Virus record (IMG/VR): IMGVR_UViG_3300030107_003389
Coordinates: 1-51,808 of that record
Length of the DNA stretch: 51,808 nt
Source: a virus
Lineage: Duplodnaviria; Caudoviricetes
Direction: 5' to 3' (one strand)
Shown here: positions 8,197 to 28,700 of the stretch, in pieces
Layout: every line of letters starts with the position of its first letter
Numbering within the stretch: position 1 is the first letter of the stretch
Position numbers and translations under genes: made by a program
The notes under the pieces: model-generated
Seen by the model: only the letters and a program-made list of their open reading frames with translations
Database searches by the model: none
What the model was told of the DNA's origin: nothing

Positions 8197-8360
8197 CTAA
8201 GTCCTTATATATCACGACTTAGACACAATACCCATTCTAAAAAAATAGCCCAAGTATGTGTGCTCTTCTTTTTTTTGCATGATACCCCCCCCCTGACTTT
8301 GTTATAGGATTGAACTTTTTAGTTGAAATTCGCCCTAAGTGTTGATATTGTTGAACTTAG
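8197..8360. repeat. Two split palindromes CTAAGT-N14-ACTTAG flanking a T-run and a C9 run
   Basis: Copies at 8197-8222 and 8335-8360 with identical 14-nt spacing. Confidence 0.75.
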
Positions 8361-8497
8361 AGCCGAGCCTTAAAAGTGAGCCGATTAGTGCTCAGACTAT
8401 ATTTTTTGAGCACTTTTCGAGCCCTCCAAATCATCCAAATCATCAAATTAGCCCTCCTGAGCACCCTTACTTTACCGACGATAAAGCCAAATAATCC

Positions 8498-8526
8498 TTG
8501 CTTGTTGCTCCTCGTATATATAAGTT
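8498..8526 (+). promoter_or_regulatory. Possible early promoter
   Basis: TTGCTT-N17-TAAGTT upstream of the first early gene. Confidence 0.4.
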
Positions 8527-8690
8527 TGTTTAGTTGGAGGTAAACCCTCGACACCTCCGACGACACAATAAGAGTTCGAGGAAAGAATAGAGAGAAAAAC
8601 ATGAATAAGACACTTTTAGCGTCAGAAATACCGACGGAGAGCACAAGTTCTCCGATAGAGAAACTAAACATCCTAAGAGGAGGATATAAC

Positions 8691-9062
8691 ATGAAAAACG
8701 AGTTAATTAACGAAAATACGACGAAACTTATCGACGAGTGCCAATTTGGTTGTGCATTGGAGATAAGCGAGAACATCGAGGAGAAAGCGAGAATATTACA
8801 GGCTATGCTCGTCGAGAACTTAGACGGAACAATTAATGCCTTAGTCGAGGCTTATGAGAAGCCATGGGATTATAGCCGAGAGGTTGTGGTTGATTTAGTA
8901 TCGACAATCAAGGGCATTAACACTTTCGACTTTGTCGTCGAGCAAGGGGATTTTTGCGATATTTTCCGAGCAAATGAGACCTTGAACGAGGTTTTTATCG
9001 TCGATGCTACTGAGGATAAATATGAGTTTATCGACGAGAACTTCGGGGAGGACTTTGTTTAA
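8691..9062 (+). CDS. Acidic early hypothetical protein
   Basis: GGAGGA RBS before ATG 8691; D/E-rich. Confidence 0.75.
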   Translation: MKNELINENTTKLIDECQFGCALEISENIEEKARILQAMLVENLDGTINALVEAYEKPWDYSREVVVDLVSTIKGINTFDFVVEQGDFCDIFRANETLNEVFIVDATEDKYEFIDENFGEDFV

Positions 9063-9312
9063 CCCGACGGCTTAACCGAGACAACGAGGCTTTGAGCACT
9101 TTGTATCGACAAGTGCCGAGAATTCGAGGGAAACCTCCGTCGAATACCCGACGGCTATTTCTCAGGGCTCAAATTCTGAGCACCGAGATAAGTGCACCCT
9201 TTATTGAGGGGAAAGTGAGGACTTACTGAGGAAAATTCGGCAAAAGCACGGCAAACTCCGTTCGCACGGGGAAGTGGGAACTTCCCTCCCTTTAAAAAGG
9301 ACTACGGAGCAA
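9063..9312 (+). ncRNA. Candidate structured non-coding island 1 (tandem short hairpins)
   Basis: GAGG-GAAA-CCTC, CCGTCG..CGACGG, GCAC(T)TTGT..ACAAGTGC, CTCCGT-TCGC-ACGGGG, GGGAAGT..ACTTCCC; ACCCGACGGCT occurs twice. Confidence 0.45.
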
Positions 9313-9351
9313 AATTAACGAAAATTCAAATAAACTATGAGGAGTTTAAAC

Positions 9352-9771
9352 ATGAAAAACAACATTAACATCGAATTAATTAACGATAGCATTAAAACTG
9401 AGACAAATTGGCTCTTACTCGACGAGTTAGAGTTATATGAGTATGATAGTGAAATCCAAGAGAGTTTCCAATATCTTTCAGATATTAGAAATGGAGAGGA
9501 TTTTAAAGACTTGCCAAGAGATTTAAGGCTTGAAATAAAACAAATTCTCTTACAAGTAGAGATAGAGAGAGATAGTTTGGACTTCTTTCTTGATGATGCC
9601 GATAGTTTCATAAGGGAGAACTTTTGGGCTCTTGTATCAAACTTTGTTATCATCGGTAAAAAAGAGCAATTTATCAAACTTTGTTTAGATAAATTGAGCA
9701 TTTGCTTAGAGGACAAAGAGGATTTAATGTTTTTACAAACATTAAACCATTTATCTGAGGGCTCAAAATAG
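9352..9771 (+). CDS. Acidic early hypothetical protein
   Basis: GAGGAG RBS before ATG 9352; D/E-rich, helical. Confidence 0.75.
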   Translation: MKNNINIELINDSIKTETNWLLLDELELYEYDSEIQESFQYLSDIRNGEDFKDLPRDLRLEIKQILLQVEIERDSLDFFLDDADSFIRENFWALVSNFVIIGKKEQFIKLCLDKLSICLEDKEDLMFLQTLNHLSEGSK

Positions 9772-9822
9772 TTGCTACCATCAAAGATGGGAGCAAAAGT
9801 TAAAAGGGCTCAGTAGTAGTGC

Positions 9823-9874
9823 TCATGTTTAATCATATCTCTTTACTTTGTTTTTAGAGATATGATAAACATGA
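9823..9874. other. Long intergenic hairpin
   Basis: TCATGTTT-A-ATCATATCTCT ... AGAGATATGAT-AAACATGA. Confidence 0.7.
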
Positions 9875-9922
9875 AAACACTTAAAGCCGAGCAAAATCAA
9901 CCACTTATGGAGGACAAATAGC

Positions 9923-10114
9923 ATGAGTAAAAAGTATTCTTACAATAGTTTCGCCGACTTTGGAAAGGCATATAAACGAGGAGAATTGGGTAAAGACTTC
10001 TCGAAAACTCTTGCCGACAACAAGAGAAAACAAGAAAGTAAAAAGATTGTTAATAAGATGTCGGCTATTAGCCAAAATACTAACGACATTTTAAAATTCA
10101 TGGGGAGGAGATAA
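9923..10114 (+). CDS. Small basic hypothetical protein
   Basis: GGAGGA RBS; 63 aa. Confidence 0.75.
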   Translation: MSKKYSYNSFADFGKAYKRGELGKDFSKTLADNKRKQESKKIVNKMSAISQNTNDILKFMGRR

Positions 10115-10115
10115 T

Positions 10116-10280
10116 ATGCCGAGAGAGATATTAGAATATATATTGGGCTTTGAAAACAAAGTTTTCAACGAGAAAACTCGAATTGAGGACTTTGAGGGTT
10201 TCTCCAAATGGATTTGGAGAACATATTACATTGACGATTTGGGAAATAAACAAACTTTGTTTGTTTGGGAGGAGAAATAA
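10116..10280 (+). CDS. Small hypothetical protein (54 aa, MPREILEY...WEEK; not in ORF track)
   Basis: GGAGGAG RBS; TAATG coupling to next gene. Confidence 0.7.
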   Translation: MPREILEYILGFENKVFNEKTRIEDFEGFSKWIWRTYYIDDLGNKQTLFVWEEK

Positions 10281-10729
10281 TGAGATTTATTAATAAAATG
10301 ATAGCCGAAGTAGTATCGAGGGAGCAAATAAAACCTATTGACATGGATAAGCACGATTTATCTATAAGTGATTTAGGTGCAGGGAGAATACCTTTATTTG
10401 CCGAGGATAATATGGGAAATTTCAACCTTTCAGACGAGGTTTTCGGTTATCAAATGGTGCGAAACATATTGACGATATGTAATCGTTATGATATGGACAT
10501 CATGAGAACAAAAATAATTGTTGAGCCCGTAGGTATAGTATGGAGTGAGGACATGCAACGAGAAAATAACGAGACTTTCGGTTGGGCTTATCAGGAGAGA
10601 GACGAAAACGGAGATATAGAATATCTCTACGATACTCGACTTTTTACTTACGAAGTAAGATATGCTCATGAGGAGGCACTTGTTCCAAGTGCTATAATTA
10701 TTAAGCAACGAGTAATAACCTATTGCTAA
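10280..10729 (+). CDS. Hypothetical protein
   Basis: GGAGGAG RBS; TAATG-coupled start. Confidence 0.75.
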   Translation: MRFINKMIAEVVSREQIKPIDMDKHDLSISDLGAGRIPLFAEDNMGNFNLSDEVFGYQMVRNILTICNRYDMDIMRTKIIVEPVGIVWSEDMQRENNETFGWAYQERDENGDIEYLYDTRLFTYEVRYAHEEALVPSAIIIKQRVITYC

Positions 10730-10750
10730 CATTAACAACGAGGAGTTAAA

Positions 10751-11107
10751 ATGAAAAATACACAAGAAATCGCAGACAATTTTCAAAGAAAATTTGAGAA
10801 AGAGGACTACCTCTCTTTCATGTTGGATGAGTTCATCCAATATTTAAAGGAGGCAAAAGAGGACGGACAAGACATCGAGGATGTCTTGAATAAATGGAGG
10901 TTAGATACCGACGAATATCTACCTTTCAATAGTTATTCGTTCCGAAAACTATGTTGGATTTTCATAAATGCTTTTGCATGGTGTCTAAAAGACACGGATT
11001 TCTCCGACATAGAGAATTACGAGGATATGGAGATGTATGTAAAGATTATTCAGGGAGATTGGCATTGGCAAGACGACATGGATAATATCAACGAGGAGGA
11101 TAAATAA
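10751..11107 (+). CDS. Acidic protein; candidate Ocr-like DNA mimic
   Basis: 118 aa with 30 D/E (hand count), aromatic-rich, acidic tail; early position. Confidence 0.5.
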   Translation: MKNTQEIADNFQRKFEKEDYLSFMLDEFIQYLKEAKEDGQDIEDVLNKWRLDTDEYLPFNSYSFRKLCWIFINAFAWCLKDTDFSDIENYEDMEMYVKIIQGDWHWQDDMDNINEEDK

Positions 11108-11108
11108 C

Positions 11109-11459
11109 ATGAAGTTAATTACGAAAGAAATTCAAAAGAAATTAGACGGAAATCTCAAACTCGACGAGTTTGAAAGAAAACCTTATCTTAAATTATTTAA
11201 TCCGTGTGGACAAGCAACATGGCTTATTTCCGAGCATAATAAGGAAACTGGTTTAATGTTCGGCTTGTGTGATTTAGGACAAGGATTTGTCGAGTATGGA
11301 TATGTTAGCATCTATGAAATAGAGGCTATTGAACTTCCGTTTGGGTTATCTATCGAGAGAGATAAGTTTTTTAAACCAAAAACTACATTAAAAGGTTATT
11401 TAGACGAAATAAATGAGAAAGCCGAGGACGGCTATCCAACTATTATGTCGGTAGCATAA
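11109..11459 (+). CDS. DUF2958 family protein
   Basis: KLFNPCGQATWLISE...MFGLCDLGQG..EYGYVSIYEIE...IERDKFF signature. Confidence 0.85.
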   Translation: MKLITKEIQKKLDGNLKLDEFERKPYLKLFNPCGQATWLISEHNKETGLMFGLCDLGQGFVEYGYVSIYEIEAIELPFGLSIERDKFFKPKTTLKGYLDEINEKAEDGYPTIMSVA

Positions 11460-11505
11460 TGATATACTTAGAACTATTTGTATTTGCACTATCTATGATA
11501 GTGAT

Positions 11506-11835
11506 ATGGGAAATAAACAAAGCAATATGGAGAGATTAAACATGATACAAGCACAAGAAGTAAAAGAAAACGATATAATTGTTCAGGCTTTGCCTGATGA
11601 GGTTATCGAGAAAGAAATAATCGAAGTTTCATCCATTTATGGAGATATAATGAGCAAATTTCAACTCATAGAAGTAATTGTTCATCAACTAAGAGAACAA
11701 CACGAGCAAGAATTGAGGGCTCAGGAGTTTATCGACATGGAACTTTATATTCCTAACGAGGATGATGAATACGAAAAAATACAAAGTATGGGATACTTTG
11801 ACGGCGATGATTTTATCATCGGAGAGGAGGAGTAA
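11506..11835 (+). CDS. Acidic hypothetical protein
   Basis: E/D-rich ORF; start uncertain (11506/11527/11542). Confidence 0.7.
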   Translation: MGNKQSNMERLNMIQAQEVKENDIIVQALPDEVIEKEIIEVSSIYGDIMSKFQLIEVIVHQLREQHEQELRAQEFIDMELYIPNEDDEYEKIQSMGYFDGDDFIIGEEE

Positions 11836-11836
11836 T

Positions 11837-11995
11837 ATGAGCACTTGGAATATATGTTGGCTATTCATAGGCTTACAATTCGCAGGGCTATTCCTTGGAG
11901 TAGCGACGGATATGGTGCACGAGTTTAACACGATTGCATATCCTACATTAGTGCTCATGTTTTTATTAATAATGCTCACTAAGTATTTAGTATGA
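11837..11995 (+). CDS. Small two-TM membrane protein
   Basis: GAGGAG RBS; two hydrophobic stretches. Confidence 0.65.
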   Translation: MSTWNICWLFIGLQFAGLFLGVATDMVHEFNTIAYPTLVLMFLLIMLTKYLV

Positions 11996-12050
11996 GCATT
12001 ATTAAAAAACATGAACAACAAAATTTCAACCAATTTGGAGGACAAATAGC

Positions 12051-13457
12051 ATGATTGTCGATAATAAATCAACTGAATTACAAAATCACGGAGGAACAGG
12101 CATGGAGAATAATATTCCGTCGGCTAATGAGATGTCGAACATGAAAGTAAAGTCGGAACTTCGCCCTATGATGAGAAAACTCGTCGATGTTTTACAAAAA
12201 GAGGGCTTAGCAAGTCGTAAAGATTGCTCAGATTACCGATACCAAATCAAAATGGGTAGCAAAAGTCAAATTATGGACTTAGCCAACAAGTTAAGTGAAC
12301 TATATGGAGATGCATTGGAAAATTTGCAACCTAATCAACCTAATCAACCTACACAACCTACACAAAAAGACGGCTCAGGCATAAAATTTAAGCCTCAGGG
12401 AAATGAAAAATCCGACGGAGATGATACTTCTTATGGAGGTAGAATAAATAATGTCGAGCAAAAAGTCGATGATTTAGCCGAAATGATAGCCAATGGGATG
12501 ATGCAAATTAAACCTAACGAGGTTAAAGATAATAACGGAGACGAATTAAAACACTTCCAATTCGATACCATAAAACTTATGTTGGAGGAGAATAAACAAG
12601 TGCTCTTAGTCGGAGATGCAGGTAGTGGTAAGACATACTTGGGTAAGCAATTAGCATCGGCATTGAATTGTGAGAATTTCCACTCGTTATCGCTTACCTC
12701 AGGGATGAGTGAGAGCCACATCACAGGTAGGATGAACATCGAGGGAACTTTCCTCACTCCTGAATTTATGCATATCGTCGAAAATGGAGGTTTAATTCTA
12801 CTCGACGAATTTGATAACGGAGATACTGATGTATTAGTCGGCTTAAATAGTTTATTAGCCAACGGCTTTATATCATGTCCTTTGAGAACAGGCAACGAAA
12901 TGGCAATTAGACACGAGGATTGTTATATTGTATGTAGTGCTAATACATGGGGTAATGCCAACTCAGGAAATATGTATGTGAGAAAACAACTCGACGGAGC
13001 AACTCTCGATAGATTTGTGTGCTCAAAGGTAGAAGTCGGAAATGATAGACGAATTACACATCGAATAATGGGCTTATCAGGAGATAATTGCGAAGTTCAG
13101 GAATATCCTGAATTAGAAATGCTATCGACATTAGAGAGACAAAATGCAGATTTACATGTCGGTAAATTAATGGAGATTTTCGATACCATAAAACAATATA
13201 CACTCAAACCTAACATGCAAATCAGACAAATGTGCTCGAATAGAGCCTATGAACAAGGTGCAAAATTAGTTAGACGAGGTATAACTCCTAACCAAGTGCT
13301 CAAACTATACCTACAAAATTGGACTGACGATGAATTAAAACGAATAGGTGTAGAGAGAGATAGAGCAAACGAGTTTTTCGGAGTAATATCGTATAATATT
13401 AATGAAAAAGAGTTCTTTAACGGAGTTAAAGACACACAAGGAGAGAACAATGAGTAG
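12051..13457 (+). CDS. MoxR/CbbQ-like AAA+ ATPase
   Basis: Walker A GDAGSGKT, Walker B ILLDEFD, sensor SANT, Arg finger DGATLDRF; QPN/QPT linker repeat. Confidence 0.9.
   Translation: MIVDNKSTELQNHGGTGMENNIPSANEMSNMKVKSELRPMMRKLVDVLQKEGLASRKDCSDYRYQIKMGSKSQIMDLANKLSELYGDALENLQPNQPNQPTQPTQKDGSGIKFKPQGNEKSDGDDTSYGGRINNVEQKVDDLAEMIANGMMQIKPNEVKDNNGDELKHFQFDTIKLMLEENKQVLLVGDAGSGKTYLGKQLASALNCENFHSLSLTSGMSESHITGRMNIEGTFLTPEFMHIVENGGLILLDEFDNGDTDVLVGLNSLLANGFISCPLRTGNEMAIRHEDCYIVCSANTWGNANSGNMYVRKQLDGATLDRFVCSKVEVGNDRRITHRIMGLSGDNCEVQEYPELEMLSTLERQNADLHVGKLMEIFDTIKQYTLKPNMQIRQMCSNRAYEQGAKLVRRGITPNQVLKLYLQNWTDDELKRIGVERDRANEFFGVISYNINEKEFFNGVKDTQGENNE
12327..12365 (+). repeat. 9-bp tandem repeat CAACCTA(AT/CA) x4 (QPNQPNQPTQPTQ linker)
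   Basis: Read directly from sequence. Confidence 0.85.
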
Positions 13458-14496
13458 AGGTAGTAGAGACGGATTTAGCCCTCAGGTAAATGATATTAAT
13501 CGCCCTTTGACGAGTAATCGCATAGTAAATGTATCACACAAGTTTCCAAATCTAAAAGATGTAGAAACTTCCTATGGGTATAATCCTACGGAGGTATATA
13601 ACTTTACCTATGGAAGTTTGAACGAGTTTATCGACGAATTAGTGTTCGATAGTTATAACGGAGACTATGATTGGTTTAATACTACTGGTTATCATAGTAG
13701 AAAGGGTAGGTATAGCGATTTTGAGACTACTCTCGACATAAATAGTAGACAAAAGATGCTCAAATGTATAAATCAGGGCTATACCTCTCCTAAACTTTGG
13801 GATGAATACATAACGAGGAAACAAGACATAATTGCCTCTCCTGAATTTGTTAATAAATTGGGCTCAATAGGTATTGATTGTCGTCGTAAAAGACAACGAG
13901 ATTTATCAGGCACTATCATAAACATTGACAAATACATGGGGGGAGAGGAGTGTATGGAGAGCATGAAAAGACAAAATAGCCAACGATGTATTAGGTTTTT
14001 TATCGATTATGCTCAGTCCTCAGGAGAGAACACAATGAGATTAACCAATAAAGTAATTATGGCAGTAGCAATATGTGAGAAAATTGAACAATTAGGGTTT
14101 GCTACCGAAATTTATTTCGGAGAAATTAGTCGCCCTACATTTAATAAGAGAACATCTTTTGAAAGCATGGGAAAGTTTAGTTGGGATAGCGACACTCATC
14201 CTATTACATGTTGGAAAATATTGGCTAAGCCCTCAGGAGTTAAAATCGACGAAACTTATCTATGCAACTATTCCTTGACTGGAATATTTAGAGATTTGTT
14301 TTTCGATTGGAGTAAAAATTGCTTAGCAACTACCGATAGTATCGGAACTCCTATGTATCACTTAATAAAACCAAGTGAAAATCAGGAGTTATACAAGCAG
14401 ATTAGCGATAGCGATATATACATCGGACACGGAGCAACATTTCAAACTCTCATAACAAATGTAGTAGGTTATGTAAATGAGGGCTCAGATGAATAA
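13450..14496 (+). CDS. Degenerate vWA-like partner of the AAA+ ATPase
   Basis: Coupled downstream of the MoxR-like ATPase; INIDKYMGGEECM, FFIDYAQS (degenerate MIDAS), IEQLGFATEIY. Confidence 0.65.
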   Translation: MSRGSRDGFSPQVNDINRPLTSNRIVNVSHKFPNLKDVETSYGYNPTEVYNFTYGSLNEFIDELVFDSYNGDYDWFNTTGYHSRKGRYSDFETTLDINSRQKMLKCINQGYTSPKLWDEYITRKQDIIASPEFVNKLGSIGIDCRRKRQRDLSGTIINIDKYMGGEECMESMKRQNSQRCIRFFIDYAQSSGENTMRLTNKVIMAVAICEKIEQLGFATEIYFGEISRPTFNKRTSFESMGKFSWDSDTHPITCWKILAKPSGVKIDETYLCNYSLTGIFRDLFFDWSKNCLATTDSIGTPMYHLIKPSENQELYKQISDSDIYIGHGATFQTLITNVVGYVNEGSDE

Positions 14497-14502
14497 AAGA
14501 AC

Positions 14503-14931
14503 TCTTAAATTAACCATACCACAGGTAAATGTGTTCCACCATTTACCATGGGTATCGGTTAATATTAAGAAAGTGAGCACTTTTTTGAGCACTAATACTT
14601 ATTCTTTCTTTGCTTCGCTTGTGAAAACAAGCAAAGCAAGAATAAGCATAGAGGCATGTGTGTTAAATAATTTGCTCACACAAAAAGTGGTGAGTAAATT
14701 ATCGCATGATGCTCGTGTTATACTCACGAGGCTTTTATATGAATTTGTAAAGCATACATGCCGAAGTATACTTCGGCAAAGTATTGCTAACAAATCATAT
14801 ACTATTGAGCATCCCTTCGAGAGTTTATTTTTGGATATTAGTCCAAAAATAAAACAAGAATATACCGACAAACGAAAATCTATTATTATTATTATTTAAT
14901 TATTTATGTTTTATAAATAATAATAATAATA
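14503..14931 (+). ncRNA. Candidate large structured non-coding island 2 (about 430 nt, at least 7 hairpins)
   Basis: Stems 14503-14570, 14598-14646 (GAAA tetraloop), 14667-14702 (G-U), 14736-14801 with perfect 20-bp palindrome 14759-14778, 14824-14853, 14881-14931. Confidence 0.6.
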
Positions 14932-14956
14932 AAAACCTTTTAGGAGGACAAATAAC

Positions 14957-15229
14957 ATGGCGAAATTTAGAATATCAATATCCGTTCCAATAGATTGGAA
15001 CATAGATGAGTTGCCAAGTGATTACACATGGGAAACTGATATAGAGGCAGACAACGAGGATGATGCCTATGATAAAGGCTACGAGGAAGTCGAGGATAGT
15101 CTCGATGTAAGTAGTGTTTATGATGAACTATACGAGGAAATGCATAATGCTTGTATATATTTAGACGGACAATACGATTGTGATTTTACTGAGTATGTAG
15201 AAGTAAGAGAAATCAAGGAGAAAAAATGA
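14957..15229 (+). CDS. Very acidic small protein (candidate DNA mimic)
   Basis: 28 D/E in 90 aa (hand count); IEADNEDDA motif; GGAGGA RBS. Confidence 0.7.
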   Translation: MAKFRISISVPIDWNIDELPSDYTWETDIEADNEDDAYDKGYEEVEDSLDVSSVYDELYEEMHNACIYLDGQYDCDFTEYVEVREIKEKK

Positions 15230-15420
15230 GATTAACCGAAAAAGAATTGACACAATTACACGAATTGTTAGACAAGGCATGTGTTCTTTGGCAATACTAT
15301 GAAAAAGAACATGTAGATATTAATGATGAAATGTCTGACGATGAGTGGGAAAGTTTTGTCGATGAAAAACAAGATGCTTTTGCTATTGCTTGTGAAAGTG
15401 CATTGGAGGATATACAATGA
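15226..15420 (+). CDS. Acidic hypothetical protein
   Basis: AAGGAG RBS; ATGA coupling. Confidence 0.7.
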   Translation: MRLTEKELTQLHELLDKACVLWQYYEKEHVDINDEMSDDEWESFVDEKQDAFAIACESALEDIQ

Positions 15421-15557
15421 GACATTACTGGTATGATGCAGATGCAGATATAATGTATGTAGCATGTTTACAATGGCATGATTTGTTAATAATGTTAGTA
15501 TTACCAATTATGTGTTGGGAATTATGTAAATGGTTAAAAAGGACATTAAAGCCGTGA
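15417..15557 (+). CDS. Small membrane protein (46 aa, MRHYWYD...; not in track)
   Basis: GGAGGA RBS; ATGA coupling; hydrophobic core. Confidence 0.6.
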   Translation: MRHYWYDADADIMYVACLQWHDLLIMLVLPIMCWELCKWLKRTLKP

Positions 15558-15817
15558 AAAAAGAGGGTAAAATCGTTATTGATATGAACGAAATTAAAGG
15601 ACAATGTTGGGTGCTCAGTTCAATTCTGAAAAGAGAACTAAGCAACTCAGACTTATCTCCTGAATATATAGACGAGTTATTCTCAAAGATAAACAATGTT
15701 GAGGAGCAAGATTTAGAGCCTTATCTAATCTACATATTTTTGAGAGAACTCGGAGATGCATACATGTTAGACAATTTAACCGACGAACAAATAAAATATA
15801 TCGAGGAGAGAAAATGA
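15530..15817 (+). CDS. Hypothetical protein
   Basis: ORF within early operon; start uncertain. Confidence 0.65.
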   Translation: MVKKDIKAVKKEGKIVIDMNEIKGQCWVLSSILKRELSNSDLSPEYIDELFSKINNVEEQDLEPYLIYIFLRELGDAYMLDNLTDEQIKYIEERK

Positions 15818-15864
15818 TTGGCATTATAGTATTTGTAATTATTTTTCCATATTGTTTGATATGA
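15814..15864 (+). CDS. 16-aa hydrophobic microprotein MIGIIVFVIIFPYCLI
   Basis: GAGGAG RBS; ATGA overlaps at both ends. Confidence 0.5.
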   Translation: MIGIIVFVIIFPYCLI

Positions 15865-16025
15865 AAAATAATAAAAATACTAATAAGAATTGGAAGTGCT
15901 CAACTTGTGGCATGGAAAATTGGAGCAAGGCAACTGAGTGTTATCAATGTGATATGTTAAACTTTTTTGGAGTTAGAAAAAATCAAAAAGGACATTTGAC
16001 GATGTCTAAGGAGAAAAAATTATGA
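15861..16025 (+). CDS. RanBP2-type zinc-finger microprotein (54 aa; not in track)
   Basis: WKCSTCGMENWSKATECYQC fits W-x-C-x2-C-x3-N-x6-C-x2-C; ATGA coupling. Confidence 0.7.
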   Translation: MKNNKNTNKNWKCSTCGMENWSKATECYQCDMLNFFGVRKNQKGHLTMSKEKKL

Positions 16026-16270: not shown

Positions 16271-16517
16271 TGTCGAAACTGAATTAACCAAACAAGTGAA
16301 TAAATCAATAGAAAAGATTAAAGCAACTGAGTGGGTATGTGAAACATGTGGTTGTCCTGAAATACAACAACAATCATGGACATACATAAACTCGGATGAA
16401 TTAGCCGACTACATAGACGGATATTTTTATTGTGAGTGGTGCAATTCAGACGACATAGCAGTAATTGACAAAAAAGAATTTAACGAAGTTAAGGAGAAAA
16501 AAAACGATGAAAAATAA
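16263..16517 (+). CDS. Zn-ribbon protein
   Basis: WVCETCG...YCEWC. Confidence 0.7.
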   Translation: MINVETELTKQVNKSIEKIKATEWVCETCGCPEIQQQSWTYINSDELADYIDGYFYCEWCNSDDIAVIDKKEFNEVKEKKNDEK

Positions 16518-20864: not shown

Positions 20865-21061
20865 GTAGAGAAGATGTCTTTAAGATGATGACACAAGAGC
20901 AACATGATGACTACACGAGAGAGTTGGAAGATAAAATAGAGGCTCGTGAAAAAGAATATATAACAATTAAAGTAAAAAAAGATAACTATAATTCTTTGAT
21001 GAAAGAAATGTTAAAACAATTTAGAGAATTACAATACAATGTAAAAGTGGAGGAAAAATGA
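20861..21061 (+). CDS. Hypothetical protein
   Basis: AAGGAG RBS; ATGA coupling. Confidence 0.7.
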   Translation: MSREDVFKMMTQEQHDDYTRELEDKIEAREKEYITIKVKKDNYNSLMKEMLKQFRELQYNVKVEEK

Positions 21062-21573
21062 ACGATACATTAGAAAGTGCTTTAGACGAAGTATTCGGAG
21101 AGGATGCATGGTTTGAGCCAAGCGAAAGTAAAGGCTCAAGTATTCCTGAGGGAGAATATGATGCTAAGGTAGTTGATTTAGTAGTAAAAGAAGATATAGT
21201 AATTAGTGGTAAATTTTTAGCCGATATTTATGAGCCTGTTTTTCAAATTCAGGGCAAAGAAGTAAGGCATAAAGGTTTGTTTAGGTTTAAAAAACCTGAC
21301 CCTGCTAAATATCCAAATTTACAAAGTGATATGGGCTCAAACTCAAACTACTACAAGTTTTGTGATATGTTAAAGATAGCACAAAATAAAGACGGAAAAT
21401 TATTTCTACCTCAGTTAGACTTAGACACTTTAAAACAATATCAATATAAAGTTGTTGTTGTTATAGAAAGTTGGACTGGTAGAGAGGGAAATGAAATGAG
21501 AACTCCTCGTGTTAAGTTTGTGAATAGTGCTCAATTAGAAGTAAATAGCAACGAAGAAGAATTACCATTTTAA
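21058..21573 (+). CDS. ssb: Single-stranded DNA-binding protein (DUF669-like)
   Basis: IPEGEYDAKV, OB-like strands, acidic tail EEELPF; follows the annealase. Confidence 0.75.
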   Translation: MNDTLESALDEVFGEDAWFEPSESKGSSIPEGEYDAKVVDLVVKEDIVISGKFLADIYEPVFQIQGKEVRHKGLFRFKKPDPAKYPNLQSDMGSNSNYYKFCDMLKIAQNKDGKLFLPQLDLDTLKQYQYKVVVVIESWTGREGNEMRTPRVKFVNSAQLEVNSNEEELPF

Positions 21574-21575
21574 TA

Positions 21576-21679
21576 TAGATTAAACGAAAATTAAACAACT
21601 CATATATTAATATAATCATTTGTTTAGTCTGTGTTTATGGTGTGAGCAAGGTTAGGTTTCTCTATTCCTAACTTTGCTC
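21576..21679 (+). other. Two intergenic hairpins with G-U pairs (terminator or processing site)
   Basis: 21576-21631 and GAGCAAGGTTAGG/CCTAACTTTGCTC 21644-21679. Confidence 0.55.
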
Positions 21680-21696
21680 TAATTAAGGAAAGTTTT

Positions 21697-21900
21697 ATGA
21701 AAGATAAAAAATTAGTTTACGATAAGAATAGAAATCCAAAATATATACCAACATCTCCTGTTGTCCACGACAAAAAATGGAGAAAGGAAACATCTGAGCA
21801 CTTCCGAAAAAAACATGGTGCTTGGTGGATTTTTGCAGGGATTAGAGGCTCGGCAAAAAGAACTTGGATTGACCAATATAGAAAGAAAGCAAGAGGTTAA
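21697..21900 (+). CDS. Basic hypothetical protein
   Basis: AAGGA RBS. Confidence 0.65.
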   Translation: MKDKKLVYDKNRNPKYIPTSPVVHDKKWRKETSEHFRKKHGAWWIFAGIRGSAKRTWIDQYRKKARG

Positions 21901-21901
21901 A

Positions 21902-22117
21902 ATGAAAAAATGGATGAAAAAATCTGCACAGGATTTAGAGAAATTCCTTGAAGATAAATTAGAAAACTATGTAGGAGAAATGTTTTGGCTACAAAATGTA
22001 GGTAAAATATATCTTACGGAAAATGGCGATATTGACGAAATAACTATGCAAGGAGAATTTAACGAAGAAATTGATATAGTTAAAGAGTGGATAGATGATT
22101 GGAAAAAAGATGAGTAA
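21902..22117 (+). CDS. Acidic hypothetical protein
   Basis: GAGGT RBS before ATG 21902. Confidence 0.65.
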   Translation: MKKWMKKSAQDLEKFLEDKLENYVGEMFWLQNVGKIYLTENGDIDEITMQGEFNEEIDIVKEWIDDWKKDE

Positions 22118-22313
22118 AAAAGGAAAAGAATATTCAGATAAAGAAGTAAATTCAATGATATTATATCTTAGAATTAATCGTGTAGCCGAAATGCAATACA
22201 TTGACGATAGTTCAGATAAGTTTCATGATTTTATTAGCCATAAAAAACTAACAAGAGAAGAAGTTATAGACTTAGCACTTGATTATAAATGGCATAAAAG
22301 TTGGAATACATAA
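22110..22313 (+). CDS. Hypothetical protein
   Basis: Coupled ORF. Confidence 0.6.
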   Translation: MSKKGKEYSDKEVNSMILYLRINRVAEMQYIDDSSDKFHDFISHKKLTREEVIDLALDYKWHKSWNT

Positions 22314-22314
22314 A

Positions 22315-22482
22315 ATGAAACCAAAAGAAGATAAATCTTGGGATATAAGGGTTGAGGGAAAACAAAATAAAAACAATATTATTTTTCAAGACAAAGCCTA
22401 TTATAAATTATATTTAGAGTTAAAAAAAGAAAATGATAAAATTAAAGCAATAAAAGGAGACGAAAATGGTTGCAAAAAATAA
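22315..22482 (+). CDS. Hypothetical protein
   Basis: Tightly packed ORF. Confidence 0.55.
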   Translation: MKPKEDKSWDIRVEGKQNKNNIIFQDKAYYKLYLELKKENDKIKAIKGDENGCKK

Positions 22483-22780
22483 AGCAAGAGGAACATATTA
22501 CGAAAGAAAATGTGTAGAATTTGCTAAGAGTTTAGGTTTAGATGCAGAAAGAACTTGGGGGTCAGACGGAAGAAGTAGAGGACTTCCTCAAGAAGTAGAT
22601 ATGGTGCTCGAAGAAGACATTTACATACAATGCAAGAAAAGAAAAAAACTTGCAAAACATTTAAAACCAACTAAAAATATACATGTTCAATTTGTTGGAG
22701 AAGATTATGGAGAAAATTATGCTATCATGTCTCAGGAATATTACTTAACTTTGATAGCAATGTTAAAGGAGGTTAAATAA
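22466..22780 (+). CDS. Hjc-like Holliday junction resolvase
   Basis: KARGTYYER, AERTWGS, VD...IQCK PD-(D/E)XK-type motif. Confidence 0.8.
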   Translation: MVAKNKARGTYYERKCVEFAKSLGLDAERTWGSDGRSRGLPQEVDMVLEEDIYIQCKKRKKLAKHLKPTKNIHVQFVGEDYGENYAIMSQEYYLTLIAMLKEVK

Positions 22781-22878
22781 TGGCTAAAAGAAAATACACA
22801 AGAAAGAAATTAAGTTTTTGGGATAAAGTTGCCAAAGGCTTAGAAAAATTTCTATCTACGGCTATGCCTAAAAAGTAA
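22780..22878 (+). CDS. 32-aa basic amphipathic microprotein (MAKRKYTRKKLSFWDKVAKGLEKFL...)
   Basis: AAGGAGG RBS; TAATG coupling. Confidence 0.6.
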   Translation: MAKRKYTRKKLSFWDKVAKGLEKFLSTAMPKK

Positions 22879-22885
22879 TAGCAAG

Positions 22886-22914
22886 TTGAAATCATGTTAA
22901 ATTATTATTATATT
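22886..22914 (+). promoter_or_regulatory. Putative sigma70 promoter
   Basis: TTGAAA-N17-TATATT. Confidence 0.55.
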
Positions 22915-22937
22915 ACAAACCTATAAAGGAGGATAAA

Positions 22938-23150
22938 ATGTCAAAAAAAGACAAGGAAATGCAAGAAAATGCTGAAAAAAACTTGACAAAATATTCTGAT
23001 GAAGTTCAGAAAGTTCAAGAAAGAAAAAATCATTTAATCCAAGAGTTAGATGCTTTAAATAAAACCGAACAAAGACTTGTTGGTGCTATGGTAGGGCTTC
23101 AGGAATTACTTGGAGAAGAAAGCGAAGAAAACAAAAAAGAGGAAAACTAA
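22938..23150 (+). CDS. Coiled-coil protein
   Basis: AAGGAGG RBS. Confidence 0.75.
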   Translation: MSKKDKEMQENAEKNLTKYSDEVQKVQERKNHLIQELDALNKTEQRLVGAMVGLQELLGEESEENKKEEN

Positions 23151-23329
23151 TGAGTTCAAACGAAGAAAAGTTAAAAGACTATGAAAGTGAAATAAAGGAT
23201 ATTAACTCTATGTTAGATGACCTTACAATGAGAAAAGCAAAATTATTGTTTGCTATTAAACAATTACAAAACGATAATTTAAGCACTCAACTTAGGCTTA
23301 ATCCTAAAAATATAGGGGGAATATCATGA
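23150..23329 (+). CDS. Coiled-coil protein (59 aa; not in track)
   Basis: GAGGA RBS; TAATG and ATGA coupling. Confidence 0.65.
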   Translation: MSSNEEKLKDYESEIKDINSMLDDLTMRKAKLLFAIKQLQNDNLSTQLRLNPKNIGGIS

Positions 23330-23529
23330 CACAAAATGATATGATATTGGTTGCACTTAAAAACGGAGAAAAAGTCACTCCTTTAAGTGCACTCCAAAAC
23401 TTTGGTTGTTTTAGATTAAGTGCTCGAATTTGGGATTTAAGAAATGAAGGGCATCCTATATCTAAAAAAACAATATCAACTCCTCAGGGAAAGTCTGTTG
23501 CAGAATATTATTATGACAAACAAGATTAA
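23326..23529 (+). CDS. Winged helix-turn-helix protein
   Basis: ITPL-like VTPLSALQNFGCFRLSARIWDLRNEGHPI...VAEY phage wHTH signature. Confidence 0.85.
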   Translation: MTQNDMILVALKNGEKVTPLSALQNFGCFRLSARIWDLRNEGHPISKKTISTPQGKSVAEYYYDKQD

Positions 23530-23704
23530 TAATATTAAAATAGAAAAAGGAACACAATCTGAGAAAGATGTTGATGACTTTAAAGAGTGGATATTAACTA
23601 AGGCAAATCAGTTAGGCTTTTCAGTAGAAACAAAAGAAATAAACCTTGATAAAGATTTAGAGGCTCGTAGTGGAGTTGCTCTATGTGATACATGTGATGA
23701 TTAA
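23513..23704 (+). CDS. Hypothetical protein
   Basis: C-terminal CDTCDD. Confidence 0.6.
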   Translation: MTNKINNIKIEKGTQSEKDVDDFKEWILTKANQLGFSVETKEINLDKDLEARSGVALCDTCDD

Positions 23705-24027
23705 TGAAAATCTTTATCAAAAAAATCATTACTAAATGGTTGTATTTATACGAAAGTATTTATTCTAAAGAAACTCTTGAATATTACTTTGGCAAAAATA
23801 CAGACTGGTTTGATGACGAGAACATAGAAAGCGAAAAAAGAAAAAAAAACGAAGTTTCTTATAGCAGGAAATCTAAGTTCCAACCTTATAGATGTCCACA
23901 ATGCAAAAAATCATGGAGATATTATTCCATGCCTAAGGGGAAAGTTCCTCTTAGGGAATTTATCGGAAAAGGAATACCAATGGAGGAAAAAAAATGCCCA
24001 AAAAAATTAAAGTGCTCAAAAATTTGA
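23704..24027 (+). CDS. Zn-binding hypothetical protein
   Basis: CPQC...CPKKLKC; TAATG coupling. Confidence 0.65.
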   Translation: MKIFIKKIITKWLYLYESIYSKETLEYYFGKNTDWFDDENIESEKRKKNEVSYSRKSKFQPYRCPQCKKSWRYYSMPKGKVPLREFIGKGIPMEEKKCPKKLKCSKI

Positions 24028-24073
24028 ACCTGTGCTCAACTTCTGCTGCCGAGCACTCACCTAAGGACTGGCA

Positions 24074-24421
24074 ATGAGATGCCCTGCTTGTGGTTGGTCA
24101 AACACCTTAAAAAATTACCCTAGAAAAATAAAACAATTAGAAAACAAACTTAGCCATGAAGCCCTTGAACATTTAAGACGGCTTTTCTTAACAACATTAG
24201 ATGATTTAACATCATATACACTTTTAAAATCATGCGAAGAACTTGAAGATAAAGTCATTGAACATTGTGTAAATATATGGGAAAGAAGAAATTTAGAAAA
24301 AAAAGGCTTTGATGTATATTATTTCATTGGTATATTGAGAAATGAAAACAAGAAGTTTGAGAACAAACTGATTGTTGAAAAAAACAAATTAGAACAATTA
24401 CCACCTACTATTAATGAATAA
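24074..24421 (+). CDS. Hypothetical protein; possible helicase loader/initiator
   Basis: N-terminal CPAC; overlaps DnaB start. Confidence 0.5.
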   Translation: MRCPACGWSNTLKNYPRKIKQLENKLSHEALEHLRRLFLTTLDDLTSYTLLKSCEELEDKVIEHCVNIWERRNLEKKGFDVYYFIGILRNENKKFENKLIVEKNKLEQLPPTINE

Positions 24422-25772
24422 TAAAAATCTTGAAGTATCAAAAATGTATAGTGGCATGTCAGAACGAGAAGTTTTGGGATGCATGCTACTCGATGATAGC
24501 ACTATTAATGAAGTAATAAAGTATATTCCTACTAAACAAGTATTTTATCACAAAGACCACCAAAACATTTGGTCTGCTATTTATAGTCTGCACAAGCAAA
24601 ATAAGAAAATCGATTTAAGTGTTGTTGCAAACTATTTAGGAGAAAAAGGATTAAAGATTACATATTATTTAAGTGGAATTACTGAACAAATAGTATCAAA
24701 AGGTAATTTAAATACACATGCAAAAATTATTTATGATTTATATTTAAGAAGAGAACTTTGGAATAAGGTTGCGAAGTTTCAACAAAGATTAAAAGACGAA
24801 AGTTCTTATAAAGAAGTAGCAACTGATGTTAATATGTTGGGGAGAATTTCCGACAAATTCGCCGATATGCTCGATAATGGCAATAAGTCAATGGATTGCA
24901 TCACAGAAGAAATGGAAGAGGCTATATTTGCTCAAAAAAATCTATTACAAACTGGATTAAGAAAAGTAGATAAGTCAATCGTTGGTATGACAAAGGGCGA
25001 AATCTCCATTATTGCAGGTAGACCTGGAAACGGAAAGAGCACCTTAGCCTTAAATATGGTTAAAAATATGATTTTAGACGGCAAAAAAGTAATGTTAGTT
25101 AGTAGAGAAATGCCTAATGTTGAGATTATTAAGAAGTTAGTTGCTATGCATACTAATGTTCGTAATAAGGAAATGAGAGGAAATGCTCACAAACACAAAG
25201 AAGAAATCAAAAAAGGTTTAGAGTTCATAAAAAAACATTACACTTCGCTTCATTTATTTGATAATTTAAGAAGTCTCGATGATAGTATAAACGAGGCAAA
25301 AAAAATAAGACCCGATGTAATTATTGATGACCATGTTGGTTTTATTGAATTTCCACATTACGATAATAGAGATACTCGACATCGTATTGCCGAAATTACA
25401 AGAAGATATAAATGGTTAGCAAAAGAAATTGATTGTTCTGTAATCTTAGTCTCTCAACTAAACAGAAACATAGAACATCGAGTTGATAAGATACCAAGAC
25501 TTAGCGACCTTGCTGAGTCTGGTAATCTTGAGCAAGATGCCGAAATTGTAGTCTTTGCCTATTATCCCTATGTATACGAATATGATAATGCCGAGCACGG
25601 AGAACACGGATTAAAAATTATCATAGCAAAAAATAGATACGGAACAACATGTAAATTTGATATGGGTTATCACGGAGATAGTGCTACAATATTGGATAAT
25701 CCTGCCGAGGCTATTGCAAAATCTGAGGGTAGAGAACTTACTACTGAAGAAGTAGTAGAAAGTCTATTTTAA
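24414..25772 (+). CDS. dnaB: Replicative DNA helicase
   Basis: N-terminal SEREVLG/FY..HQNIW; IAGRPGNGKS, SREM, SQLNR, LSDLAESGNLEQDA, AKNRYG. Confidence 0.95.
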   Translation: MNNKNLEVSKMYSGMSEREVLGCMLLDDSTINEVIKYIPTKQVFYHKDHQNIWSAIYSLHKQNKKIDLSVVANYLGEKGLKITYYLSGITEQIVSKGNLNTHAKIIYDLYLRRELWNKVAKFQQRLKDESSYKEVATDVNMLGRISDKFADMLDNGNKSMDCITEEMEEAIFAQKNLLQTGLRKVDKSIVGMTKGEISIIAGRPGNGKSTLALNMVKNMILDGKKVMLVSREMPNVEIIKKLVAMHTNVRNKEMRGNAHKHKEEIKKGLEFIKKHYTSLHLFDNLRSLDDSINEAKKIRPDVIIDDHVGFIEFPHYDNRDTRHRIAEITRRYKWLAKEIDCSVILVSQLNRNIEHRVDKIPRLSDLAESGNLEQDAEIVVFAYYPYVYEYDNAEHGEHGLKIIIAKNRYGTTCKFDMGYHGDSATILDNPAEAIAKSEGRELTTEEVVESLF

Positions 25773-28700
25773 TTTTCTATAGTGCTCATTTTTTGTTTGA
25801 GCAATATGTCTAAATAATTCTTGAGAGTTTATGCGATAAACACCTGTAATATCTTTAAGTTCTGCTTTCATTTCATCATTTAATCTGCTTACAAAATCTG
25901 CATGGTCTGATATTCTTCTACCTTGTGTTGATTGCATTGATAGTTGTATAGGTTTTTGGTCTTTTATGTATGCTAATGCCATTTTATATCCGTATTCAAA
26001 CGATACTTTTTGACTTGTTCTTCCTGGATTAGCCATTTCGTGTTGATGTGCTAAGAAATATACGGTAGTCCAAAAACTTTGAGCCTTTTCTTCTATAGGT
26101 TTTTGAGAATAAAGAGTTGCTTGTAGTTGTTTATACATTAAACTTTTCGTCACATCGTCGTTAAATTGTCCAACACTTTCAATTTTTCTTATGTCTTTTC
26201 TATATTCTGATTGCAACATCCTCATATTTTTGAAATGTCTTAAATCTTTTTTAAGCCAATTAGCCTCTATACCTTTAATAATGTCATTAGACAAAGGAAT
26301 TGCTTCAAAAATTGCTTTTGCTCCTGCTTTTAACAATGCTACATCTTGACCATTAGCATCCTTATCTAATAACATTGCTCCTCCTTTAAACATTTGAGTA
26401 AATGCACCTATCATCCTTATAGGCAGTTGAATAATTGCAGGAGTAAATGATTGAAAAAAACCACCTGATGCTTGGTCTTGGTCCATTATACCTGAGCCCA
26501 ATGCATACATTTCACCTTTTACTGCGTAATCGTTCATCCTTTCAAGAGGAATAACGATGTTATTTCTATATTCATCCCAACTTATTTCTCCTTTTGAAAC
26601 ATCTATTGTAGATTTTGCAAAATCTTTTAATTTCATTTCAGGTTTAAATGCCTTAGGATTAGAGTTAAATGCATCAAAATATACATTTTGTAATACATAT
26701 CCTGCTCCCATACTTCCTGCTATATATCTTAACATAGGAGCAACTTCTCCATTATCTATCATAGGTCTAAACGCATTTTTATAAACATTTTCTTGAACAC
26801 GATAAGCAATACGATAAAACAATGTAAAAGGTTTCATCGCTTTAGTGCTCATAAAACGAGGCATAAACACAGGGTCTGCTAAACCTTGCGTGCTCGCATG
26901 TGCTGTAAAATATATTTTATCTAACGCTTTTTGACTAAATGCTCCTGTTTCAACTGCGTCTGCAATTTGTTTATCAGACAATTCTAACGCCTCTCCGAGC
27001 ACCCTTCTGGCTGTAGACTTGTCCATACCAGAAAACATTTTTATTGGCTGGTTTCTGAGCACCCTAAGAGCATCAGTCGCTACAACATCTCCTGTAGTAG
27101 TTGCTACTACCCTATTTAATTCTTCTGCTTTTTGCATCCAAGTAGTAAGCAATTTTCTAAATCCTGTTTTTGGAACTAATGTAGTTTCTAATATAGCATC
27201 AGAAGCACCTATAGCACCACTTGCTCTTGCTTTTTGCCATGCTTGATTTCTAAATGATTTACTCATAATCATATTATACCATGTCGAAATAACAGGTTTC
27301 ATGCCATGTGTAGTTAATAATTGAACATTTCCTAAAAGAATATTTTTTAGAGCAGAACGAGGACTACTTAAACCCAAAGAAGCAGTCCAAGATACTAAAT
27401 TTCTTGAAATAGGTCCAGTTAATTCATCATATCCAGGTCCATGAAGAATTAATTCTAAATCTTTTTCCATTTGTTCTTTAATATATTTTTGAGCACCTGG
27501 ACTATTTACTTGTCTTTGTATACTTCTAAACCTTTTTGTAAAATTTGACGAAAAGTCTTTCGAGCCTGGTTTAAATACACCTTCGTGACCAAAATATTTA
27601 GTAGTTGCAGTAATATTTGATGCACGACTTGCATATCTGTCCATACTTTTAGCATAATTAGGCTCATATATATCTATTATTTTAGCAATTCTAGTTCCAT
27701 CAATGCTATCTCCTACTTGTTGAGTCATGTTTTTTACACCTTGAATTATTTTTCCATTACTATCAAGAAACAATTTTGGAGGAATAGCATCACTTAAACG
27801 GCTATATTGTGCTCCAAACATACCATGTTTTTGACTTCCAGTAAGAACAGTTTCAAAAACTCCTTCTGCAAGTTCATATCTTTTTTCATATGGTAATTGA
27901 GCATATTCTCCATTTCTGATAAATCTTGCATCATGAGCTAGTATATGATTAATCATAGTTTCATGAGCATCTTTATCTTTCATAAAAAATTCTGCAGCTT
28001 CATCAGTAGTTGTTAAACTTACAAAATTAGGAGTTTTTGTTAAGTCTCTATATCTATAACCTTTTCCATCCCAATATTTTTCTTTTACTCCAGCTTTTTT
28101 CATCATTGCAAACATATCATCGGTATATTGTTTATGAAGAGCTACCATTTTAAGCATAGCATCATGCTCTTGAGCAGTTAAATTTGGCTGTAATTGCTTC
28201 ATAAACCTTCCTCTTGCACTTTTAGTTTTTCCTTCAATAAAATATGTAAGATTCTCGTCTAATAATTTTGTAGAAGCCTTAGAAAGACCAGAAGTAATTT
28301 TTTTCATCTGTTCTCTCATTACTGAATATCCACCTTTTAATTTTTCTCTAAAAGCAACCATATCTCCTAAGTCTTTTCCAAGAACTACTAATTCATCACT
28401 TCCTAAATCTCTACCTAAATTCATAAATTTAGTGTTAATTGGAAGAACTGAATTAATCCATTTTCTTATACCTCCTAAAAGAGACTTTTCTTGTCCAAAT
28501 AAAGTAGATAATGTAGATTCATTTACTCTAACAGCATATGTTTTGTCTGATTTTAACAATGAATAATATTTGGCAAGTTCATCACTATTCATTTTTTTCA
28601 TAGAATCTTTACCAAATAAAGCTTGTTTTAAAGCTGCATGGTGCTCAACACCTTTTTTAGTTGCTATAGGAGATTTTAACCCCATTGTTCTTTCTAATTG

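Follow-up and report, generated by a model that had tools for sequence, protein, structure and literature searches.

The window analysed here is the entire record IMGVR_UViG_3300030107_003389, the 51,808-base genome (33% G+C) of an uncultured marine phage, in which the hexamer GAGCAC (GTGCTC on the other strand) is strongly over-represented over roughly half of the DNA. A minus-strand open reading frame (ORF) exits the record at position 3 and resumes in frame from position 51807; because this ORF crosses the record junction, the assembly was taken as circularly closed and complete. Metagenomes carrying the window sequence were found in 20 runs, which were marine and in some cases freshwater; none of those listed was an RNA run. 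Family scans with PHROGs and/or Pfam covered 40 of the 73 ORFs of the window, and the negative statements on gene families below refer to these 40. The early/replication module lies on the plus strand at 8020–25772 (genes from ~8.3 kb) and holds 38 GAGCAC sites. Its products include a MoxR-like AAA+ ATPase, a vWA-like/DUF7192 partner, a PD-(D/E)XK exonuclease, a Sak-like annealing protein and a DnaB-like helicase, besides those of numerous small ORFs without a known family. The late operon lies on the minus strand and runs from 8019 across the record junction to 25764; according to library scans, it encodes the small and large terminase subunits (TerS and TerL), portal, head genes, a 2230-amino acid tail fibre with Peptidase_S74, a T7 gp14-like internal virion protein and a protein of 1699 amino acid residues. 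The gene of the latter (25764–30863, minus strand) carries 11 GAGCAC sites, all within 25782–29906. The 1699-residue protein had no family match of its own and, based on its position after the T7 gp14-like gene, is probably a T7 gp16-like internal virion protein. Between the two gene blocks lies a divergent intergenic control region (8020–8600), where the dense stretch of sites starts, with sites at 8260, 8388, 8408 and 8459 and a GAGCCC at 8419. No tRNA genes were found in the window.

The whole window contains 59 copies of GAGCAC/GTGCTC, compared with 11.55 ± 3.23 in 100 dinucleotide shuffles, none of which reached 59. An earlier note on this DNA, made from the letters alone, had counted about 45 copies by hand at 8260–27814; the exact count was 45, with both orientations occurring as claimed (21 on the plus and 24 on the minus strand). 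The lower frequency that it described elsewhere was also observed, with 2.30 sites per kb in the block vs 0.43 per kb (14 copies) in the other 32.25 kb. Its estimate of roughly 3 copies expected from base composition agreed with the values of 3.2 for 8020–25772 and 3.8 for 8260–29911. Within 8020–25772, GAGCAC was the most over-represented hexamer (38 copies, 12-fold over composition). The end of the block at 27814 had to be moved, given that the dense stretch reaches 29906. Redrawn in this way, the GAGCAC/GTGCTC-dense stretch spans 8260–29911 and contains 49 sites, in either orientation, in 21.65 kb, for an expectation of 3.8 (composition) to 18.7 (order-3 Markov). In the remaining 30.2 kb, 10 sites were found vs 4.9–9.5 expected: six in the motif-poor late genes at 29912–51808 (minus strand; tail fibre with Peptidase_S74, T7 gp14-like and head genes), and four where the motif-poor part continues at 1–8259.

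All of the clusters named in the earlier note were present, namely the four sites of the divergent control region, 14575/14587, 24012/24032/24051 and 26845/26890/26997/27057, and the high frequency that it reported for GAGCCC/GGGCTC in the block (12 vs 1.6 expected), as well as for TCGA and CCGA, was confirmed. Its statement that the copies cluster in non-coding DNA did not hold: 7 of the 38 sites in 8020–25772 were intergenic, in a region of which 12.5% is non-coding. When five related early modules were pooled, 38 of 227 sites (16.7%) were intergenic, compared with 15.2% non-coding DNA, so that the sites do not, in general, favour the non-coding parts.

The anatomy of the word was derived from 389 sites of five genomes. 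Information was limited to the six bases and to a pyrimidine at −1 and +6 (~77% each), giving YGAGCACY, and the one-mismatch variants of GAGCAC showed no comparable enrichment. GAGCCC in the context TGAGCCCT occurs in 15 copies in the window, 13 of them in the dense stretch, and looks like a weak variant of GAGCAC there. Among the 227 pooled sites, 189 (83%) were located in ORFs, in all frames and uniformly along the genes, with 92 in sense and 97 in antisense orientation. A promoter or operator class was considered and rejected, as the word was found in the upstream regions of only 2 of 39 early genes, without fixed position and orientation at gene starts.

The spacing of neighbouring sites was not random. 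Gaps of 11–20 bp were observed 33 times, compared with 12.3 ± 3.4 expected, and none of 1000 simulations reached 33; gaps of 6–10, 21–30 and 31–40 bp were at expectation. The inverted pair that had been noted at 8387–8414 in the divergent control region is indeed present, as AGTGCTCA-N12-TGAGCACT, with 20 bp from start to start. The arrangement GTGCTC...GAGCAC at exactly 20 bp occurs six times in the pooled genomes, where some pairs are homologous and not all are independent. Further examples in the window are a direct pair, GAGCACTTTTTTGAGCAC, at 14575–14592 on the plus strand (12 bp start to start), an inverted pair, GTGCTC-N10-GAGCAC, at 18772–18793 (16 bp start to start), and three sites at 24012–24056 with gaps of 20 and 19 bp, upstream of a gene for a 115-amino acid protein that precedes the helicase gene. 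The close pairs at 11–13 and 19–20 bp fit cooperative protein binding, which is predicted from the spacing.

The enrichment was compared with several null models. A within-gene synonymous shuffle, which bears on the claim that codon usage does not account for the sites, gave 7.0 ± 2.3 in the early genes compared with 31 observed, and this claim was upheld; in the late genes, the same shuffle gave 7.9 ± 2.4 vs 21 observed. Order-3 Markov chains trained on the block, with the absence of AGCT reproduced, gave 14.3 ± 3.6 vs 38, and none of 300 chains reached 38. As the motif contributes to the tetramer counts behind these chains, this null errs on the generous side; tetramer content alone raises the expectation from 3.2 to ~14. 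The maximal-order Markov score (45 vs 29.2) was disregarded: the motif itself makes up the pentamer counts, so that this model is over-conditioned. The earlier note had further held that avoidance alone would be insufficient to create intergenic clusters. When synonymous codons were resampled in the early genes with the eight absent palindromic tetramers, 13 absent palindromic hexamers and GCNGC barred, 7.6 ± 2.3 sites were obtained vs 31 observed (maximum of 14 in 150 runs). Moreover, the avoided words differ among related genomes. The early module of the window lacks ACGT, AGCT and GTAC, has four CTAG left and contains 91 CATG; in G001–G004, ACGT, AGCT, CTAG and GTAC are present and CATG is absent, with the same GAGCAC enrichment. 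Redistribution from AGCT/GGCC/GCNGC avoidance was thus ruled out, because the null models fail and relatives avoid other words. The results support the view that a word with sharp limits is under selection in its own right, at the level of DNA, and forms an array that avoidance did not bring about.

Codon choice in the first early genes (8020–14600) was also recorded. The GAG:GAA ratio was 106:63, compared with 91:570 in the late genes, CTC made up 26 of 166 Leu codons compared with 9 of 820, and CGA, TCG, GAC and AGC codons were raised as well. At the start of the early module of G001, TCGA and CCGA reach 35–41 per 2 kb.

In the related genomes, the density of the word was kept. A search with the helicase returned nine IMG/VR loci at 68–73% identity, all with 2.2–3.7 sites per kb upstream, and seven related genomes carry 2–4 sites per kb. 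Five whole related records contain 92, 90, 61, 87 and 54 copies, compared with 4–14 of the reversed control word. Alignment at the DNA level was possible for only ~4 kb of the dense stretch of the window, and for most early genes no homologue could be detected in the other genomes. Among the aligned sites, 3/7, 4/8, 3/7 and 5/10 were kept, vs 16–19% of control hexamers. Conservation in relatives, as looked for by the earlier note, therefore stands for density and only in part for individual sites, which turn over, few of the 17 distinct helicase and 15 distinct exonuclease site columns being common to all genomes. In a read comparison of strains, none of the 40 listed differences (of 946) hits a site, where ~0.5 would be expected.

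A search with a TerL profile yielded 69 loci, of which 20 included a near-full TerL along with early sequence of 2.4 kb or more; together with the window, 21 early modules were available. Twelve of these were GAGCAC-rich (at least 2 sites per kb, window included), eight carried GTTTAAAC and one outgroup had neither. The GTTTAAAC modules have 2–3.7 copies of that word per kb and no GAGCAC excess. On the TerL tree, the GTTTAAAC type forms one clade of seven, plus one locus that is nested with the window (support 94/95, sub-threshold), from which it follows that the early-module type was swapped at least once.

The sister lineage carries a motif of its own. In its phages (L037 1–7300; G006–G008, G010), 22–28 copies of GTTTAAAC are concentrated in the early module, as part of an oriented motif, AGAGCGTTTAAACG, which in several cases immediately precedes the ribosome-binding site, 15–20 nt ahead of the start of an early gene. 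AGAGCGTTTAAACG is probably a promoter or regulatory cassette, different in kind from the GAGCAC array. Some GAGCAC-type genomes, namely G004 (32–39 kb), G009/L028 and L029, possess a second motif, ACGCGAAG (CTTCGCGT on the opposite strand), which is strand-specific and occurs 11–12 times in the initial portion of the early module.

Genes common to both types were compared as orthologues at similar divergence. The helicase gene contains 2, 5, 6, 7, 6, 5 and 6 sites in seven GAGCAC-type genomes, vs 0 and 0 in two sister-type genomes, and the exonuclease gene contains 2, 5, 5, 5, 5, 4 and 4, vs 0 and 0. In the gp16-like gene, 6–11 sites were found in the GAGCAC type vs 1–2 in the sister type; TerS, TerL, portal and other late genes have 0–3 sites in both. 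Since orthologues have 5–7 copies in the GAGCAC lineage and lack the word altogether in the sister lineage, the selective agent must be lineage-specific. The differences could be followed to single codons. A conserved Lys-Ser-Thr is written AAG AGC ACC in the GAGCAC type and AAA AGT ACT in the sister type, Glu-His is written GAG CAC vs GAA CAT, and Val-Leu is written GTG CTC vs GTT TTA. At variable positions, single genomes swap residues to Glu-His, Ser-Thr or Val-Leu, thereby making sites. Judged from these alignments, the codon patterns indicate that selection, or drive, continues to favour the word as such.

In five complete GAGCAC-type genomes, the dense stretch begins at the divergent control region, spans the early module and enters the distal late genes. 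Taken as the distance between the divergent point and the last dense site, with boundaries set by eye from the site lists, its length was 22.1, 24.1, 24.7–26.3, 26.8 and 22.5 kb (43–58% of the genome); the early modules of the same five genomes measure 18.0, 12.9, 13.9, 14.6 and 14.3 kb. Because this length is steady while the early modules vary, the dense stretch behaves as a length of DNA rather than as a set of genes, which is suggestive. In pac phages, P22 and SPP1 among them, packaging proceeds along the late operon and away from terS, and the DNA packaged last is ejected first. By analogy with these phages, the dense half is probably the DNA that enters the cell first.

The same part of the window is poor in palindromes. 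Between 6950 and 27935 there is no AGCT; elsewhere the word is frequent, and it returns abruptly at 27936, inside the gene of the 1699-residue protein. The early module (8020–25772) is devoid of 8 of the 16 palindromic tetramers (AGCT, ACGT, CCGG, CGCG, GATC, GCGC, GGCC and GTAC) and of 13 palindromic hexamers, and the only CTAG copies are the four mentioned above. TCGA shows the opposite pattern, being dense in 8417–27560 and nearly absent beyond. The sister-type genomes are almost without TCGA. GATC and GGCC are absent from all fully fetched records (W, G001, G004, G005, G007, G008 and G009), the only exception being G009, with three GATC within its first 2 kb.

Two neighbouring early genes emerged as candidates for a role in reading the word. 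The first (12051–13457, plus strand) encodes a MoxR-type AAA+ ATPase of 468 amino acid residues, identified by Pfam (AAA_5) and fold comparison. Its structural model (predicted local distance difference test, pLDDT, 67.5) was nearest in fold to NorQ/CbbQ, with McrB at rank 15, and a conserved basic three-helix N-terminal domain is followed by a disordered linker. The second gene (13402–14496, plus strand), which overlaps the first, encodes a DUF7192 protein of 364 amino acid residues; its model (pLDDT 59.5) gave weak matches to vWA-type folds, none at E ≤ 0.001. All 10 testable GAGCAC-type loci contain both genes; none of the seven P-type loci that were long enough does. The N-type outgroup, the single locus L079, also lacked them, with 4.4 kb of early sequence and thus a borderline reach. 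Among the early proteins, only these two showed presence in the GAGCAC type and absence in the sister type. The relatives of the ATPase in IMG/VR with at least 36% identity were all located in GAGCAC-rich loci; more distant ones were not. An McrBC-like pair was considered and rejected, given the NorQ/CbbQ-like fold and a partner whose matches were (weakly) to vWA folds and not to nucleases. For the pair, PADLOC returned weak P-loop hits only and PDB sequence searches weak Lon P-loop matches only, and a search of ESM Atlas with the 95 N-terminal residues of the ATPase gave no usable match.

Short words were also examined in other marine phages. In another group (L138–L172; 34 loci, 302 kb), the GDGCHC set was depleted, with 13 GAGCAC vs 99 expected, 0 GTGCAC vs 50, 2 GAGCTC vs 50, 4 GGGCAC vs 72, 7 GAGCCC vs 72 and no GGGCCC; one-mismatch neighbours outside GDGCHC were at a normal level. 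It follows from this depletion that enzymes reading such words act in this habitat, presumably as a restriction system of the SduI/Bsp1286I kind in the hosts. Private hexamers in two orientations, chosen post hoc as the top word of each locus, exceeded the synonymous-shuffle null in L117, L120, L173 and L178 (GCTAAC, 40 vs 13.2; CGTCGA, 79 vs 19.2; CTCGAC, 59 vs 9.2; ATTCCC, 62 vs 25.2; CGCAAG, 45 vs 13.9), and such words may be common in marine phages. Among the papers listed in the literature search, none gave an account of GAGCAC/GTGCTC as a phage or methylome motif. The site of a phage HNH nickase described in the literature, GAGCADNW, is unrelated and does not tolerate C at its position 6.

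As the best reading of the data, we consider it a serious though tentative possibility (probability of about 0.4) that a DNA-binding factor with sequence specificity recognises GAGCAC on the probably first-entering half of the genome, and that the array of these sites is under selection for its density. In such an array, YGAGCACY would be a positively selected cis-acting word, and we infer that a protein reads it, most likely one encoded by the phage. Density (2–4 per kb, in either orientation) and not the exact places would matter, with sites continually gained and lost, and the subset in phased pairs (11–13 and 19–20 bp) would allow cooperative binding by an oligomer. The factor would coat, protect or organise the first-entering half before the rest of the infection programme, and the MoxR-type ATPase with its basic N-terminal domain and the vWA-like partner may take part. 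The earlier note had proposed a dispersed array of binding or modification sites on leading DNA, hypothetically serving as a host-methylated 'self' tag, as handles for a protein that coats or pulls the incoming DNA, or as decoys; what survives of this proposal is a word selected at the DNA level, kept in density and arranged in phased pairs that fit binding, and what falls is the preference for non-coding DNA.

Several observations weigh against an array of this kind. The ~3 sites per kb inside genes are many more than a regulator needs. No helix-turn-helix or repressor family was detected among the scanned ORFs, and no binding protein was found. The pair of candidate proteins resembles, in its models, a MoxR-vWA chaperone pair of the NorQ/NorD type, which has no known DNA role, and its association with the word is a lead of phylogenetically non-independent origin, coming from one large sister clade and one swapped locus. 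The regularity in length comes from five genomes with boundaries drawn by eye, and is suggestive. The designation as a first-entering half draws on analogy and on the restriction-site avoidance of the window; in the relatives, the avoided stretches are shorter, involve other words and do not coincide with the GAGCAC stretch. Because extents and words differ in this way, palindrome avoidance and the GAGCAC array were treated as separate features. Finally, the hexamers that other marine phages possess may leave room for a general, possibly non-protein, cause.

Two alternatives would also make GAGCAC a recognised word. It could be a Chi-like tag, at which a host helicase-nuclease of the AddAB/RecBCD type stops degrading DNA; loaded onto the exposed half of the genome in two orientations, it would guard either side of any break to within a few hundred bases. 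Selection on density and not on position, sites inside genes and turnover would all suit a tag acting by its presence, orientation parity fits two-sided breaks, and the window stretch also avoids restriction sites, as would be fitting for DNA exposed to host nucleases. Yet sister-type phages with a closely related TerL carry no such word, guarding the leading end alone needs one orientation only, phased pairs of 11–20 bp have no role in Chi recognition, and known Chi words are G-rich 5-8-mers, which GAGCAC is not. A Chi-like role therefore appears unlikely to us. We would place at a similarly low level the alternative that GAGCAC is the target of a methyltransferase or base-modifying enzyme, from the host or from an unrecognised phage gene, whose many modified sites on the exposed half would hinder host nucleases or mark self. 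A sharp non-palindromic 6-mer on both strands has the format that we associate with Type IIS, Type III or BREX-like systems, and GAGCAC belongs to the GDGCHC set that is depleted in the other marine phage group. However, known targets of this kind are neutral or depleted in phages and not more than tenfold enriched, as is GAGCAC (12-fold), only GAGCAC and weakly GAGCCC are enriched and not the whole GDGCHC set, and no methyltransferase or base-modifying family was detected among the scanned ORFs. The private hexamers admit a wider version of the array, in which a private word on a length-defined first-entering half is a 'self by presence' code of a lineage-specific machine (here the ATPase and its vWA partner) and the other hexamers are further instances. 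The machine would protect, organise or process the incoming DNA. This generalisation, too, is doubtful at present.

Two further explanations are less probable still. A neutral drive or by-product (biased repair, gene conversion, codon or dinucleotide habits, or a sink for palindrome-destroying mutations) would leave the word functionless. The early genes do favour G/C-ending codons far more than the late genes, tetramer content alone lifts the expectation to ~14, and several unrelated marine phages have over-represented hexamers of their own. Nevertheless, null models that keep the codon usage and protein sequence of each gene and bar all avoided words give 7–8 sites vs 31, relatives that avoid different tetramers enrich the same word, and sister-type genomes that avoid many of the same palindromes have no sites in orthologous genes; in addition, sites are created by amino acid replacements, and the phased pairs are left unexplained. 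We regard a neutral origin as improbable. Ordinary expression signals of the early transcription unit, such as promoter elements, operators, terminator stems or RNA motifs, are the least credible source of the array as a whole. A few sites do lie in control regions (the inverted pair at 8387–8414 and the group at 24012–24056 upstream of a gene), one pair overlaps a predicted terminator-like hairpin, and the sister lineage possesses in AGAGCGTTTAAACG a motif that is truly associated with gene starts and oriented. Against this, 83% of the sites are in ORFs without bias in strand (92 vs 97) or position, 11 sites are in a convergent late gene, and promoter-like hits in 7900–8700 are at the level of shuffled sequence (3 vs 2.4). 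Expression signalling could hold for a few of the paired intergenic sites only. Part of the total probability was assigned to none of the explanations considered here.

The array was compared with known systems of dense words. Chi exists as a natural word and is enriched in some phages. Like GAGCAC, it is short and unmodified, dense, located inside genes and selected at synonymous sites; unlike GAGCAC, it has one orientation and is set by a host enzyme, whereas GAGCAC is balanced, covers about half of the genome and is missing from sister phages. Orientation-dependent action would predict a bias relative to DNA ends; the counts were 21 plus and 24 minus in the block and 92 sense vs 97 antisense in the pooled modules, and two-sided breaks would also predict parity. 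The DNA uptake sequences and uptake signal sequences (DUS/USS) of Neisseria and Pasteurellaceae are 9–12-bp words of bacterial chromosomes that are read by the competence machinery. They share with GAGCAC a density of at least ~1 copy per kb, both orientations, a location inside genes and an amino acid cost. Assignment to this class was rejected, given the 6-bp core, the phage carrier and the confinement to one stretch of the genome, and no competence genes were found among the scanned ORFs.

Stoperators are ~13-bp asymmetric sites, mostly intergenic and in one orientation to transcription, that are bound by the immunity repressor of temperate phages. In Cluster A mycobacteriophages, they are reported as numerous binding sites for one phage protein across the genome (PMC9283540), and in this respect, many sites spread over a phage genome, they resemble GAGCAC. 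The class was nonetheless rejected on the basis of the 6-bp core, the orientation of 92 vs 97 and the location of 189 of 227 sites in ORFs, and no repressor or integrase family was detected in the scans; small ORFs without a family remain. The first-step-transfer DNA of T5 is reported as a defined leading portion of the genome that is in the cell by itself; it contains special cis-acting repeats and is vulnerable to restriction and CRISPR (10.1101/866236). The window is similar in that restriction-type palindromes are missing from its early stretch. The T5 signal is a local repeat cluster with DnaA boxes within 8% of the genome, unlike one hexamer over 43–58%; a two-step entry with a fixed leading end would be hypothetical for the window.

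Dense selected words, such as Chi, uptake sequences, FtsK orienting polar sequences (KOPS) and stoperators, have each revealed a DNA-handling machine, and GAGCAC represents a clean and strong case in an abundant family of uncultured marine phages. A reader of the word, if found, could reveal what shields or arranges phage DNA during the first minutes of an infection, and the word might then serve as a marker, from sequence only, of the genome end that enters first. Enrichment of short words, and not only their avoidance, thus carries biological signal in viromes. If the 'self by presence' code were true, the private hexamers would together make up a class of phage cis-element that is general and has so far gone undescribed.

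No close cultured relative was found in protein searches with portal, Sak and TerL, which returned only distant phages of many hosts (21.7–49% identity), and a megablast of 8000–28000 against phage records gave zero matches. A scan of genome contigs for relatives gave a lone match of 36% identity on a 2.8-kb contig of an archaeal metagenome-assembled genome, which was uninformative. In the divergent region, the part at 8020–8376 contains short repeats of the TAGTTAG/CTAACT type (~8125–8185) and a C9 run (~8295), and may be an origin, a pac site or a control region. The contigs of other strains break or join near 8045–8071, which suggests a recombination junction between modules. In the early module, a protein of 116 amino acid residues encoded at 11109–11459 matches DUF2958 (E = 1e-26), a family without assigned function.

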